A stretch of DNA of 64,000 nt from Jejuia sp. Lineage in GTDB: Bacteria; Bacteroidota; Bacteroidia; Flavobacteriales; Flavobacteriaceae. Positions 40,869 to 51,803 of the stretch are shown in pieces (the stretch's first letter is position 1; each line of letters opens with the position of its first letter). A program made the translations under genes and the position numbers. The stretch is from positions 39,024-103,023 of the forward strand of contig JBMHCT010000021.1 of the NCBI GenBank assembly GCA_049889775.1, given 5' to 3'. A model generated the notes under the pieces. It ran no database searches. It was not told the DNA's origin and worked only from the letters and a program-made list of their open reading frames with translations.

Positions 40869-41732
40869 ATGAACGCCGGTTTTAAAACATACCTTTCAGA
40901 TTTACTAAATGAATCCATTTTAGGTATTAATTCTATTTCTGGCGGTGACATCTCCAAAGCCTATAAAATCTCAACAACAAACTCTGATTACTTTCTAAAA
41001 ATTAACAATGCTCAAAATGCGCTAACAATGTTTCAAACAGAAGCCTATGGTTTACAAACTATTGGCAAAACATGCACCATAAAAACACCCGAAGTCATTG
41101 CTTATGATATGTTTGAAGATTCTGCATTTTTGTTATTGGAATTTATAGAATCGAAATCACCAACATCCGAAGGTTTTAGACTACTTGCAACGCAATTAGC
41201 GCAATTACATCAATGTACTTCTGAAAGTTTTGGTTTGGATAAAGACAACTTTATCGGACGTTTACCACAACCCAACAAACAACACAAAACTTGGACGGAT
41301 TTTTACACTTGCGAACGCTTGCAACTACAGCTGGAAATGGCAAAACAAAAAGGCTTTCTACAAGAATTTGAATTTCCAAGTACAGAACTCATAAAAAATC
41401 GATTACAACCATTGTTTAAAAACATAAAACCATCTTTATTGCATGGTGATTTATGGAGTGGTAATTACTTAATTTCAAAAGATGGTGAACCATATTTAAT
41501 TGATCCCGCAGTGTATTACGGCCATAGTGAAGTTGATATTGCTATAAGCAAACTTTTTGGCGGTTTTGGCGAAACGTTTTATGAGGCTTATTGGTCAATA
41601 TTACCTCCTGATGAGCATACTTCGGCAAGAATTGATATTTACCAACTGTATTATTTACTAGTGCACTTAAATATGTTTGGGCGGTCTTATTATGGGTCGG
41701 TAAGCTCAATTTTAAAAAGGTACTTCGCTTGA
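40869..41732 (+). CDS. Fructosamine kinase family protein
   Basis: ISGGDIS, YFLKIN, PSLLHGDLWSGN, IDPAVYYGHSEVDIA. Confidence 0.92.
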   Translation: MNAGFKTYLSDLLNESILGINSISGGDISKAYKISTTNSDYFLKINNAQNALTMFQTEAYGLQTIGKTCTIKTPEVIAYDMFEDSAFLLLEFIESKSPTSEGFRLLATQLAQLHQCTSESFGLDKDNFIGRLPQPNKQHKTWTDFYTCERLQLQLEMAKQKGFLQEFEFPSTELIKNRLQPLFKNIKPSLLHGDLWSGNYLISKDGEPYLIDPAVYYGHSEVDIAISKLFGGFGETFYEAYWSILPPDEHTSARIDIYQLYYLLVHLNMFGRSYYGSVSSILKRYFA

Positions 41733-41809
41733 CTTTGTAAAATTTTTCTTCTACCTTCGTTTACCGGCGGATATAAGCCATTATACAACGGCGCATATCC
41801 GAAATCACG
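41729..41809 (+). mobile_element. Cassette platform, left arm A1: promoter (TTG-N20-TACCTTCG) plus left part of an attC-like hairpin
   Basis: 79/81 bp identical to 51314-51394; similarity ends sharply after GAAATCACG. Confidence 0.75.
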
Positions 41810-42830
41810 TTAGGTGCAATTTCAACCAACCCAAATGAACATCGTTAGAACATTTATTCACACAAATAGAGACATTCACGGAAAAGATTGTATTTCTGAA
41901 TTTTTACTACCAAATATTGCCGAGAATAAACCAAACTTTATTGGAATGACTTCAGGTAAATCTTATGATTTAGGCTTGATTGTTGGAACGAGCAGAAAAT
42001 GGGATGAGAACATTCTTTTTAACGAATTTAAGAAAGTTAAAAGTGTTGGACTTTTTGGGAGAAAACGAAAAAAGCAGATTCTAAAAACCTACATCTCACA
42101 AATACCAAAATTAAGAGAAGAATATCCTGACTCAATTGTTGAACTTGACAACGAATTAAGTTTGGTAAGAGTGGAATCCCGAACCGAATTTCTAAACCGA
42201 ACCAAACCGAAACCAAAATCTATTTCTAAAAAAGTTAAGGATAATTACTTGAATTTAGCTCAAGCTTGTCTGAATGAAGAACAGTTATCTGAATTCCAAT
42301 CTTTTATAAAAAATCTAAAGGACTATAATGGACATTGGAAATATGGAACAACTCTGAATTTCGTAAATGAGTTTTTAAACCAAAAGAAGATTTTTCTCTT
42401 TCTGGTTTTGGACTGGAAAGCTGGAATAGCAGATTTAAACTGGATTTTGAATTTAGCATTTGAAAAAAACTTTAATCAAAAAATTGAACTTCCAAGTACT
42501 GATAATTATCCAGAAAGAGCATCTGTTTCTTATGACAACGTGTTTTACGATTATAAAAAAGTATTAAATAAGTCGGATTTTGATATAACAATTATAGATA
42601 CAGATAGTGACCAATATGTACTTTTATTACACAAATTGTCTGAAAAAGATAATGTTTCGGAATCAATAGCTGGAATTGAATTTAAGGAAATGAAAATAAA
42701 CTGCACCTAACAATGTATAACCGCAATTACGGCGGATTCGACTACGTCCGAATCCACTCGGAATTGCTAAATACAGTGCTTAACCGTAAACCCTAACTTT
42801 AAACCCGTAACGGACGGTTATACGAGACCG
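41809..42830 (+). mobile_element. Integron-like gene cassette (single ORF plus attC-like site)
   Basis: Starts G|TTAGGTGCA (GTTRRRY). The ORF stop lies in the perfectly complementary inverse core TGCACCTAAC (42702-42711). Inner arms GTATAACCG (42715-42723) and CGGTTATAC (42815-42823). Confidence 0.75.
41835..42710 (+). CDS. Hypothetical cassette protein (C-terminal region resembles DUF6630, LDWK...DTDSDQY)
   Basis: Open frame; likely start ATG 41835 (the track start at 41814 lies inside the core site). Domain call is from memory of the motif only. Confidence 0.6.
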   Translation: MNIVRTFIHTNRDIHGKDCISEFLLPNIAENKPNFIGMTSGKSYDLGLIVGTSRKWDENILFNEFKKVKSVGLFGRKRKKQILKTYISQIPKLREEYPDSIVELDNELSLVRVESRTEFLNRTKPKPKSISKKVKDNYLNLAQACLNEEQLSEFQSFIKNLKDYNGHWKYGTTLNFVNEFLNQKKIFLFLVLDWKAGIADLNWILNLAFEKNFNQKIELPSTDNYPERASVSYDNVFYDYKKVLNKSDFDITIIDTDSDQYVLLLHKLSEKDNVSESIAGIEFKEMKINCT

Positions 42831-42949
42831 GTTAAACGAACCTAAAAAAAGACCCAATAAGTAGATTGAGGGCCATAGCTGGCAAACACGCCCGCGTTAG
42901 GGATTGCAGAGGAAAGCCCACAGCGCAGCTAAAGCGGAGCGAGGACTTG
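42831..42949 (+). mobile_element. Cassette platform, right arm B1
   Basis: About 88% identical by manual alignment to 51628-51747, beginning GT(T/G)AAACGAACCT. Confidence 0.75.
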
Positions 42950-42982
42950 GAAAGGAAAGCCCGACCCTTTAGGGTAACGCCC
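42891..42982 (-). repeat. MITE-like element family A, copy 3
   Basis: GCGTTAGGGATTG...AAAGCCCGACCC..GGGTAACGCCC, the reverse complement of the family termini. Confidence 0.85.
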
Positions 42983-43020
42983 AAAGTAGATAATTTGAAC
43001 TCTGTAATTTTACAGCTTGC

Positions 43021-45030
43021 CTAATCTAAATACGAAAACGCATCAATTGTTACGGGCCCTACAGGATTACCTTTATAATGTTTACCGGTAGCTTTAAGCT
43101 CTAATTTATGAAGCCCTAAAGGCAAAACTTCGGTTTGATAAATTACAGAATCGTGCAAGGGGTTCTTAAAATAGCAATCTATATTTTCAACATAAACATC
43201 ATCAATATAAACCTCGAAACCACCCATGTTTTTACTGATTAAACCATAGCAGCGGGCTTGTGTTCCGTTAAAGAAAAATGTTGCTGATGCGCCTTTTTGA
43301 GAGGTAACTTGTTCGCTACCTAAATAAATATCTTGCCCTTCTTTGTTTGCATTCCAATTACCCTTATAAACAATAGTGTAATGGTTATCGTCTACTTTAT
43401 TCCAAAAACTCGTGTTGGTATCAGAAATACGAACTTCATAAACGCCTTCAACATCTTTAATTGGAATATTAATCTTAGAAATTTCATAAGGCTTTAAGGC
43501 TGGTATTTTGAGTTGTTTTATAACCTGCCACTCCTCGTTGGCATAAGTATAGACTTTTAAAACGACTGGATTAGAAGGCTTTAGTCCAAAATTTTCTACC
43601 TGAGTTTTCAAAATACCTTCTTCAATTTTTATAGGCAGTGTAACCAATGCAGCAGGGTCTTCTTTATACTGCGGAAGTAAGGCATAGCCATACAGCATAT
43701 TACCTGAGTTTGTTTCTCCTAAAAGTTTTAAATCATAATTTGAAGTGTTCAATTTTGTTCCATGCCAATTGAAAGTCAATATCAAATCTCCATTAAGTTC
43801 TTCGGAAGTAGAAACCACCGCACCTCCTCCGTAATTGACCACCTCGGAGCCTCCTAATCGCAAAGATTCAATATTAACATCTTTAGTAGGATTGAATCCT
43901 TTTTCAGCTTTAATCCTAATGTTTACATTTTTTGTGTTTTCTGTGATATTATCAGTATTTATCACTTCAATTAAACGTTCGGTAACCAATGGCAAAATCA
44001 CATGTTTTGAACTGTGATTGTCATTACCCAAATCTTCTTTTTTCTCAACATCAATTACTGCTAAGGATAAATGGGTAGCCCTTCCATATTCATCTTGTTG
44101 CACTTTGGGGCGTTCAAATTTGGTCCAAGTATTTGTAGTGCCATCAGTGTACCTAAAAACCGTTTTATCATAAGGTTCCCCAGGTTCAATTTTCCAGTTA
44201 ATGCCATCTAGTGAGCGCATATAGACTGATTTTTTATCTACCGCATGATTAAACACCACATGGTACTGGTGACGACTTTTCCAAATAACTGGGTCTTCGG
44301 GATAACCGCTGTATCTATCATAATTTCTAACGGAAATGATTTCATAAGGCCCAAGTAAACCTGTTTTAGAAATCATGACATCACCACGTTTTGTAAAAAA
44401 CATAAAACTACCATCTGCTCTTTGAAGCCCTGTTAAATTTGTGTTTAAATGCGATAAACCTTTATGCCTTCGTTTATCAATCTTAATTTTACCTAAAAAT
44501 TGCCAAGGTCCGTCAAGAGTTTCAGAAGTATAAACTCCTCCTTTACTTACATGCAACATGTACGCACCATTGTTTAACTGAACGACTTCAGGGTTATGTG
44601 CTTCTTTAAGGGCTATACCTGTAACTTTATATGGACCAATTGGATTTTTAGAAACTGCGTGGGCCACTTCAGATTTTGGCCAACCCCAATGTCCTTTTTC
44701 CTCAGGCCATCGGGCAACATTAATATGGTATTTATCGTCCTTTCCTAACATAGGGTTTCCGCCCCAGTAACTCCAATCATTAGACTCTAAACCATTATTT
44801 ATATCTCGTGGTAAAACGTCATCTGTTCCCCAAATACCTTTTGAAGTTAGTTTTTTTATGATAGGCATTGGTTTGATGATATCCTTAAACTGTCCGCCAA
44901 ATACCAGTTTCTTATCATCTTTTTGAGCATATACTGAAAAATGCAGAACTAAAAGCAATGAAAGGCACGCTAAAATTCCATTACTCAATTTAGTGTTAAT
45001 TACTTCATTTTCTGTAATTTTTACTTTCAT
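43021..45030 (-). CDS. Secreted glycoside hydrolase, GH43-like five-bladed propeller with C-terminal beta-sandwich modules
   Basis: Signal peptide; WSYWGGNP..HAVSKNPIGPY, HNPEV, EDPVIW, ERPKV motifs. Family not firmly assignable. Confidence 0.6.
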   Translation of the reverse strand: MKVKITENEVINTKLSNGILACLSLLLVLHFSVYAQKDDKKLVFGGQFKDIIKPMPIIKKLTSKGIWGTDDVLPRDINNGLESNDWSYWGGNPMLGKDDKYHINVARWPEEKGHWGWPKSEVAHAVSKNPIGPYKVTGIALKEAHNPEVVQLNNGAYMLHVSKGGVYTSETLDGPWQFLGKIKIDKRRHKGLSHLNTNLTGLQRADGSFMFFTKRGDVMISKTGLLGPYEIISVRNYDRYSGYPEDPVIWKSRHQYHVVFNHAVDKKSVYMRSLDGINWKIEPGEPYDKTVFRYTDGTTNTWTKFERPKVQQDEYGRATHLSLAVIDVEKKEDLGNDNHSSKHVILPLVTERLIEVINTDNITENTKNVNIRIKAEKGFNPTKDVNIESLRLGGSEVVNYGGGAVVSTSEELNGDLILTFNWHGTKLNTSNYDLKLLGETNSGNMLYGYALLPQYKEDPAALVTLPIKIEEGILKTQVENFGLKPSNPVVLKVYTYANEEWQVIKQLKIPALKPYEISKINIPIKDVEGVYEVRISDTNTSFWNKVDDNHYTIVYKGNWNANKEGQDIYLGSEQVTSQKGASATFFFNGTQARCYGLISKNMGGFEVYIDDVYVENIDCYFKNPLHDSVIYQTEVLPLGLHKLELKATGKHYKGNPVGPVTIDAFSYLD

Positions 45031-51313: not shown

Positions 51314-51394
51314 TTGACTTTGTAAAATTTTTCTTCTACCTTCGTTTACCAGCGGATATAAGCCATTATTCAACGGCGCATATCCGAAATCACG
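51314..51394 (+). mobile_element. Cassette platform, left arm A2
   Basis: 79/81 bp identical to 41729-41809. Confidence 0.75.
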
Positions 51395-51627
51395 ATGGTA
51401 TGTAATTAACTGCGGCACGTGGAACCCGCGTTTTGCAAACGCTCCCATTCCACTAATTACATACCATCGTCCACTGTTTGTTGCACCCCTAGCCAATTAT
51501 TAGTACTTTTAATCGAGTCCACGTGAACTCCACAGTAACTAACTACACACATCAGCGTGTATAGCGAATGGGGCGCAACAATGGCTACCCAGTGGGGCGC
51601 GCCCCACTACGCCATACACAGTGGACG
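51395..51627 (+). mobile_element. ORF-less palindromic insert with attC-like structure
   Basis: 17-bp perfect inverted repeat 51392-51408/51454-51470; arms GTGTATAGCG and CGCCATACAC; CGTCCACTGT (51468-51477) is complementary to ACAGTGGACG (51618-51627). Confidence 0.6.
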
Positions 51628-51747
51628 GTGAAACGAACCTCAAAAATAGACTTAATACGTACATTGAAGGCCATAGCAAGCAAATACGCACGCGTTAAGG
51701 ATTGCAGAGGAAAGCCCACAGCGTAGCTAAAGCGGAGCGAGGACTTG
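51628..51747 (+). mobile_element. Cassette platform, right arm B2
   Basis: About 88% identical to 42831-42949. Confidence 0.75.
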
Positions 51748-51803
51748 TAACCCTTCGACTTCGCTCAGGATAAACTCCAAGCCCAACCCTTTAAGGGACG
51801 CCC
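51692..51803 (-). repeat. MITE-like element family A, copy 4, with nested REP (CCCTTCGACTTCGCTCAGGAT, 51751-51771)
   Basis: Degenerate termini GCGTTAAGGATTG and GGGACGCCC; extra hairpin relative to copy 3. Confidence 0.8.

Follow-up and report, generated by a model that had tools for sequence, protein, structure and literature searches.

The stretch of DNA analysed here comprises 64,000 nucleotides of a Jejuia sp. genome (GenBank assembly GCA_049889775.1, contig JBMHCT010000021.1, positions 39,024 to 103,023 of the forward strand) and is referred to below as the window. Behind a fructosamine kinase gene the window carries a segment (positions 41810-42831) which we interpret as a mobile gene cassette belonging to an integron-like system of site-specific recombination that is near-universal in Flavobacteriaceae. 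We put the probability of this interpretation at about 0.88. The cassette appears to have entered a repeated landing pad, itself a short hairpin that resembles a recombination site, and the recombinase of the system is not a canonical integron integrase. The source genome is a 3.65-Mb draft (34.5% G+C, 47 contigs, 99.9% complete), whose protein homologues lead to Winogradskyella and its relatives.

Cassette boundaries and the attC family

Because the crossover in integrons takes place between G and TT, the last six bases of R' come to stand at the front of the same cassette, and the cassette start is thus complementary to the R'' box at its other end. The segment in the window has exactly these ends (Table 1; the vertical bar in sequences marks the crossover). 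Its own R' is GTTAGGT (41809-41815), the start matches the reverse complement of the extended R'' in 10 of 10 positions, and a repeat search of the window extended the boundary inverted repeat to 14 nt, 13 of them complementary. By direct inspection of the sequence, all motifs listed in the preliminary description of this DNA were found in place. It had expected circularisation to restore an attC with perfectly paired R boxes, which the match of G|TTAGGTGCA to TGCACCTAAC bears out, and only about 25 bp ahead of the start codon, which lies 25 nt past the cassette start. The cassette itself stands, while the ends then proposed (41809-42837) have to be moved to the recombination points given above. 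The G+C content is 32.1% in the cassette and 29.9% in the ORF (open reading frame), compared with 34.5% in the genome.

The attC site at the downstream end of the cassette has boxes that fit the RYYYAAC (5', ACCTAAC) and GTTRRRY (3', GTTAAAC) consensus. It can be aligned from end to end with three sites on one metagenome contig, one site from Olleya and one from elsewhere in the source genome. In an independent RNAalifold run the L stem of the six sites showed compensatory changes at 6 of 13 pairs, and the consensus has unpaired positions within this stem. These six sites were used to build a covariance model, which gives the window attC 105.4 bits (E = 1.2e-21 genome-wide). A pattern-based attC finder (AAC...GTT with an 8-nt stem) had been abandoned as far too unspecific in AT-rich DNA.

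The preliminary description had suggested looking for the same attC family elsewhere in the genome, especially in arrays. The covariance model found ten sites in the source genome (the one in the window and nine more), arrays of 8-21 sites per 19.5 kb in five complete genomes of Flavobacteriaceae relatives, and members of the family in 167 of 201 Flavobacteriaceae genomes (83%). Across 62 sites, 94.9% of the stem cells are paired, against 23-49% in slid controls; 10 of the 13 pairs have compensatory changes, with 152 cells altered on both sides, a number reached by none of 500 shuffles. The reconstituted circular attC of the cassette is closed by a 14-bp R stem (z = -4.9), and the two attC strands fold almost equally well (-28.0 vs -27.4 kcal/mol). 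No Rfam family reached its gathering score in the whole window or at the recombinase locus described below, so neither attC nor a GC-rich repeat found nearby is a curated RNA family.

The same end rule is obeyed by the relatives. In 59 cassettes from five arrays, the start (G and 9 nt) agrees with the reverse complement of the cassette's own extended R'' in 9.2 of 10 positions on average, compared with 5.5 of 10 for non-cognate pairs. The cassette protein has 15 close homologues. Three copies of the cassette gene were found in unrelated contexts. The closest (92% identity in amino acids, 93.8% in DNA) is the third (cassette C) of a four-cassette array on metagenome contig L013, where cassettes with matched ends are TTGTAGCAA/TTGCTACAAC, TTGTGCAAC/GTTGCACAAC and TTAGGTGCA/TGCACCTAAC. 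A copy in Winogradskyella maritima (L010; 88% and 89.8%) has lost its attC, and one in Olleya (L011; 68% and 74%) is flanked, as in the window, by the halves of a short hairpin site. For all three copies, blastn homology to the window opens at cassette base 1, just past the G. Of 17 congeneric genomes, 16 lack the gene. The patchy distribution and exact boundaries anticipated in the preliminary description are thus what the comparison gives.

The boundary repeat on its own is no proof of a cassette, because inverted repeats of this kind are not rare in such an AT-rich window: 13 pairs of GTT...AAC 10-nt repeats lie 300-3000 nt apart, about as many as the 8.8 expected from first-order Markov simulations. 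The gene could then simply stand between a chance repeat and a terminator-like palindrome, or belong to an element of the MITE (miniature inverted-repeat transposable element) or insertion sequence type. It is the covariance-model match, the fold of the circular attC and the comparative evidence that lift the case above chance. The same breakpoints occur in four genomic contexts, the end rule holds for the 59 cassettes of relatives, and, as expected of attC, the palindrome stands beyond the repeat at one end only. A MITE or insertion sequence-type element was ruled out by the missing transposase, the missing target-site duplication and this one-sided architecture. We find it hardly credible that there is no cassette here at all.

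Table 1. Features of the putative cassette, its attC site and the platforms in the window
Feature	Position	Strand	Details
Gene cassette (predicted)	41810-42831	+	1,022 bp; from TT of G|TTAGGTGCA through G of G|TTAAAC
Cassette start G|TTAGGTGCA	41809-41818	+	
Extended R'' TGCACCTAAC	42702-42711		exact complement of cassette start; ORF stop TAA (42708-42710) within
ORF	41835-42710	+	291 amino acids; two domains
Cassette attC	42705-42837	+	133 nt; aligned end to end with five other attCs
R'' ACCTAAC	42705-42711		followed by spacer AAT
L'' GTATAACCG	42715-42723		
Internal hairpin GGATTCG-ACTACGTC-CGAATCC	42735-42756		
L' CGGTTATAC	42815-42823		
Spacer GAGACCG	42824-42830		
R' G|TTAAAC	42831-42837		hybrid; TTAAAC is the platform's part
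Platform left arm	41729-41809	+	81 nt; short attC-like; conserved 5' extension TTGACTTTGTAAAATTTTTCTTCTA; crossover G 41809
Left-arm R''-like box TTCGTTTAC	41756-41764		
Left-arm L'' CGGATAT	41768-41774		
Left-arm L' ATATCCG	41795-41801		followed by spacer AAATCAC
Platform right arm TTAAACGAACCTAAAAAAAGA	42832-42852	+	TAAACGAA pairs with left-arm TTCGTTTA; arms detected as inverted repeat
Second platform, left arm	51315-51394	+	split at the same G by a different insert
Multi-copy non-coding element	51395-51627	+	about 233 nt; occupies second platform, whose right arm GTGAAACGAACCT follows from 51628

The interrupted platform behind the kinase gene

The sequences on both sides of the cassette are parts of a repeat of about 100 nt, here called the platform. 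Its left arm recurs at the second platform of the window and in at least nine further genomic places (at least 11 copies in total); homology between the copies starts at TTGA(C/T)TTTG and stops at ...CACG, and in occupied copies TT comes next after the G, followed by unrelated sequence. The right arm (TTAAACGAACCT...) is also found behind six other cassette or attC ends in the genome; this count comes from a tightened motif scan, a loose one having given 211 mostly spurious matches. Most copies hold one or two differing cassettes. One copy (C35:220482-220575) is empty, with left and right arms contiguous.

Once joined, the flanks of the window cassette form a hairpin in which the R box (TTCGTTTA/TAAACGAA) has 8 bp and is separated by a spacer from an L stem (CGGATAT/ATATCCG). 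The reconstructed platform folds at -15.5 kcal/mol on the bottom strand (z = -3.9) and at -12.0 kcal/mol on the top strand; short platform sites of this kind are only weakly recognised by the covariance model. Since the left arm recurs, an empty copy exists and the joined flanks form an attC-like hairpin, we conclude that the cassette probably recombined into the platform at G|TT. The insertion target is another short attC-like site and not plain chromosome.

In the mechanism that we propose, entry of the cassette at G|TT of the platform behind the fructosamine kinase gene would have split the platform into the two arms of Table 1, presumably via a folded single strand as in integrons, and the other platform copies would serve as secondary landing pads. 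Excision is predicted to leave an empty platform reading ...AAATCACG|TTAAACGAACC (also given as ...CCGAAATCACG|TTAAACGAACCT) and a circle with the junction ...GAGACCG|TTAGGTGCA..., that is, ...CGGTTATACGAGACCG|TTAGGTGCAATTT.

Conserved synteny of the cassette gene with the kinase gene was the observation by which, according to the preliminary description, the cassette would fall. The congeners do not have it, because they carry other cassettes or no platform there: three genomes (G004, G010 and G009) have the orthologous platform behind the kinase gene with three other cassettes, and eight have no platform. Turnover of the content can be considered recent on the species scale, since the same locus holds different cassettes in congeners.

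The stop codon of the kinase gene (TGA, 41730-41732) lies within the left arm. In all four platform-bearing genomes (window 41727-41732; L037, L044 and L045), the kinase stop is the platform's TGA, reached after one or two extra codons, and in platform-less relatives the gene ends with TAA, TAG or TGA right after ...YF. Apparently, the platform inserted at the native stop codon of the kinase gene or took its place.

The recombinase and the relation to integrons

The IntI model TIGR02249 gave no match at its cut-off in the source genome or in 301 Flavobacteriaceae genomes. Arrays of the attC family are associated with another enzyme. In five complete relatives (G121, G261, G244, G080 and G169) the array starts no more than a few dozen bases past the stop codon of a tyrosine recombinase gene and is co-oriented with it, the region upstream of the recombinase gene being almost empty of sites. 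The array-heading recombinases are 376-394 amino acids long. They pass the cut-off of the XerA-like model NF040815 (220.6 and 238.6 bits, cut-off 220) and fail that of IntI (213.4 and 203.4 bits, cut-off 265). In the region that holds the IntI-specific additional domain in VchIntIA (2a3v) they have 17 residues instead of 60, and they possess an extra N-terminal domain of about 100 amino acids.

The homologue in the source genome is encoded at the end of contig C3; it has 355 amino acids, shares 34-46% identity with the array-heading enzymes and scores 183 bits against the IntI model. Upstream of its gene, reading away from it, there are three or four TTGATATAYAC repeats, then the crossover-type junction ...ACGTG| and then a 233-nt repeated element, which is the reason why the contig breaks there. 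Homologues of the gene often stand close to contig ends, which had raised the suspicion of neighbouring rRNA genes, but no rRNA genes were found near this locus. In Winogradskyella sp. R77965, the gene of a 76%-identical recombinase faces ...TTTACGTG|TTAACTACA, followed by a cassette whose attC begins with GTAGTTAAC and scores 51 bits on the covariance model. We read the C3 locus as a putative attI-like site from which the array would run in the classical divergent orientation. The catalyst of cassette movement would then be the XerA-like tyrosine recombinase without the IntI-specific domain, encoded on C3 beside this site, and we infer its link to the cassette from these junctions.

The conservation of the C3 enzyme can also be understood differently. 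The 355-aa recombinase is 62-78% identical and of constant length across many genera and stands among housekeeping genes in R77965, which would suit a conserved chromosomal Xer-like enzyme with another job; the cassette would then be a real but stranded relic, no longer mobile. The low identity of this recombinase to the array-heading enzymes and the loss of attC in the W. maritima copy agree with such a relic. On the other hand, the R'/R'' pair of the window cassette is still perfect and its attC still scores 105 bits, the four platform-bearing congeners hold differing cassettes at the same locus, the cassette DNA is 93.8% identical to a copy in an unrelated metagenomic array, and the R77965 recombinase does face an attI-like junction and then a cassette. 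We therefore regard the stranded relic as unlikely, and a cassette that is still mobile as the better reading.

Another possibility is that this is an ordinary integron cassette served in trans by a canonical IntI from an unsampled replicon or organism, with the Xer-like neighbours being coincidental. The sites do fit all tested classical attC rules (RYYYAAC/GTTRRRY boxes, G|TT crossover, imperfect hairpin). However, IntI is missing at the model cut-off from the 99.9%-complete source genome and from the 301 Flavobacteriaceae genomes, and in five out of five array-bearing complete genomes the array adjoins the stop codon of a Xer-like recombinase gene. Integrons are defined by IntI, and surveys built on this definition report almost none in Bacteroidota: IntegronFinder 2.0 lists for Bacteroidetes only In0 and one complete integron (Salinibacter) (PMC9024848). 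We consider an IntI acting in trans very improbable, and a system run by Xer-like enzymes remains our preferred reading.

Mechanistically, the nearest known system is the sedentary chromosomal integron, e.g., the Vibrio superintegron with its repeats of about 125 nt. Both have cassettes in which an ORF, seemingly promoterless in our case, precedes an imperfectly palindromic site of about 130 nt, R''/R' boxes, a G|TT crossover and a cassette start complementary to the cassette's own R''. In both, site structure is kept more than sequence and long unidirectional arrays carry mixed cargo. The system described here differs in its recombinase, which lacks the IntI-specific domain and has the extra N-terminal one, in the array lying downstream of the recombinase gene and co-oriented with it in several genera, and in an attC sequence family of its own; besides, the window cassette is outside any array, in a dispersed platform. 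In the strict sense, membership among integrons fails on one tested defining feature, the IntI integrase.

The nearest described system with a Xer-type enzyme is rAID-1 (recombinase-associated acquired interbacterial defence) of gut Bacteroidales, in which a XerD-family tyrosine recombinase gene is followed by co-oriented short low-GC orphan immunity genes (10.1101/471110; PMC12247911). The intergenic repetitive motifs of rAID-1 were called 'reminiscent of integrons', with sites and crossover left undefined (10.1101/471110; PMC12247911), and assignment to rAID-1 requires a recombinase at least 44% identical to BF9343_RS08045 (10.1101/471110). Common to both systems are the Bacteroidota host and the Xer-type recombinase, and the recognisable fusion partners of the cargo domain DUF6630 (see below) are immunity domains. 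The rAID-1 layout, with a 5' XerD-like recombinase gene and at least two co-directional genes, fits the arrays of the five complete relatives and not the window cassette, which is solitary. Moreover, rAID-1 has been described for the order Bacteroidales only, and the array cargo of Flavobacteriaceae is much broader.

A cassette with attC far from an integrase gene also brings to mind CALIN elements (clusters of attC sites lacking integron integrases) and single attC sites (PMC9024848), as well as attG-type insertion of cassettes outside integrons (attG is named in PMC12901181). In our case, the target is not a plain GTT-containing genomic site but a conserved hairpin platform in at least 11 copies, which is reused at the same base by different cassettes and kept at an orthologous locus in four species. 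Our literature search found no paper on these Flavobacteriaceae arrays, but its coverage was incomplete and this is absence of evidence only.

What is new here is that landing pads are dispersed and reused, and that the recombinase context is of the Xer type. Tentatively, and at slightly worse than even odds, we propose a 'distributed integron' in Flavobacteriaceae: a Xer-type recombinase, in which the IntI domain was lost or was absent from the start, may move attC-bounded cassettes into its own array and into repeated platforms at the 3' ends of ordinary genes. Each platform would offer one or two slots for expression, with contents that change from species to species. In that case, the additional domain of IntI would be dispensable for folded-strand cassette recombination, and integron-type gene capture in Bacteroidota would be far more widespread than current tools report. 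The cassette follows the integron rules base for base, yet the only recombinases associated with its attC family are Xer-like. If these enzymes do the job, the IntI marker overlooks a large pool of mobile genes in marine bacteria, one that matters ecologically; the little-understood rAID-1 arrays gain a concrete mechanism; and landing pads offer cassettes a route to spread through the chromosome and be expressed behind housekeeping genes, unlike in the single-array model.

Several points speak against the cassette interpretation. The whole case is built on sequence comparison. The C3 recombinase gene is far from the cassette, and the role given to it comes from one relative and a junction at which the assembly breaks. 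The minimum-free-energy fold of attC in situ favours internal hairpins over the long L stem. The attC spacers are asymmetric (3 nt vs 7 nt) and both unpaired, and differ from classical attC spacers, which are 5-6 nt long; no extrahelical bases could be assigned. The alignment of 62 sites in which covariation was counted had been fitted to the covariance model. Finally, a scan of sigma-70 promoters and terminators, which does not model Bacteroidota promoters, gave nothing above chance.

The cargo protein, its expression and elements around the platforms

The protein encoded in the cassette consists of two domains. The N-terminal one (approximately residues 1-120) is also found alone, in proteins of about 110 amino acids. 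The C-terminal one (approximately residues 130-285) is DUF6630, found elsewhere alone or behind varied N-termini. The resemblance to DUF6630 seen in the preliminary description is supported by a Pfam match above the gathering score (PF20335, residues 157-280, 39.8 bits with a cut-off of 27, E = 7.4e-10). In the alignment of homologues, the conserved C-terminus (...KINCT and the stop codon) is encoded by the extended R'' box. The AlphaFold2 model has a mean predicted local distance difference test (pLDDT) score of 84.2 and a predicted template modelling (pTM) score of 0.70.

Among 38 multidomain DUF6630 proteins, the recognisable partners are only Imm5, Imm49 and SUKH-1, all of them families of polymorphic-toxin immunity proteins, besides a marginal TctB (E = 9e-4). 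In one of the fusions (P0020), a homologue of the entire 291-aa protein stands behind Imm49. Since the recognisable fusion partners of DUF6630 are immunity domains, we weakly propose, at roughly one chance in three, that the cargo may be an orphan immunity protein against an interbacterial toxin. It is a candidate member of a new immunity-protein family. The immunity assignment is based on 3 fusions among the 38 proteins, and the 75 array ORFs of relatives are mixed (hydrolases, cyclases, AbiEii-type toxin-antitoxin genes) and not mainly immunity genes. Foldseek against the PDB returned nothing at E below 0.4 for the cargo protein, PADLOC gave only sub-threshold matches to DruE and Cas6, and PHROGs and NCBIfam gave no match.

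Transcription of the cassette may start from the kinase gene or from a promoter-like stretch in the left arm of the platform. Bacteroidota promoters have the -33/-7 consensus TTTG / TAnnTTTG. The 5' extension of the left arm (41729-41759) contains cTTG, 20 nt and then TACCTTCG, which resembles this consensus and could drive the cassette. The conservation of these bases has another possible cause, because the same bases form the R'' stem.

The 233-nt element that occupies the second platform is present in at least six copies (window 51395-51627, C21:3-234, C3:64645-end, C32:134828-end, both ends of C36 and the end of C35). It starts with ATGGTATGTAATTA, a 75-nt hairpin, and ends with ...ACAGTGGACG; its first bases are AT, not TT. 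In every case, the crossover G of an attC, a platform or an attI-like site directly precedes the element, and TT-starting cassettes or a platform right arm come after it; contigs break within it. Its behaviour is that of a cassette without an ORF or of a parasite specific to the recombination sites. Contigs C14 (3.4 kb) and C36 (2.5 kb), the start of C21 and the end of C32 consist of individual cassettes, with attCs or the 233-nt element as their borders. The assembly has probably fragmented the main cassette array of the source genome.

The ORF convergent with the cassette (669 amino acids, 43021-45030, minus strand) has no Pfam match at E = 0.01. The arrays of relatives at L031, L034, L030, L032 and L035 contain sites of two sizes side by side, short ones of about 53 nt and long ones of about 130-196 nt, and two DDE transposase genes lie within relatives' arrays.

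A GC-rich element of about 100 nt resembling repetitive extragenic palindromic (REP) sequences has about 50 copies genome-wide, two of them in the window (42888-42985 and 51654-51770). It has the form CGCGTTAGGGATTG...GAAAGCCCGACCC...GGGTAACGCCC and has no Rfam match. The element follows each of the examined platform right arms at a distance of about 50 nt, and it is also found behind the kinase gene in platform-less relatives (L038 and L039).

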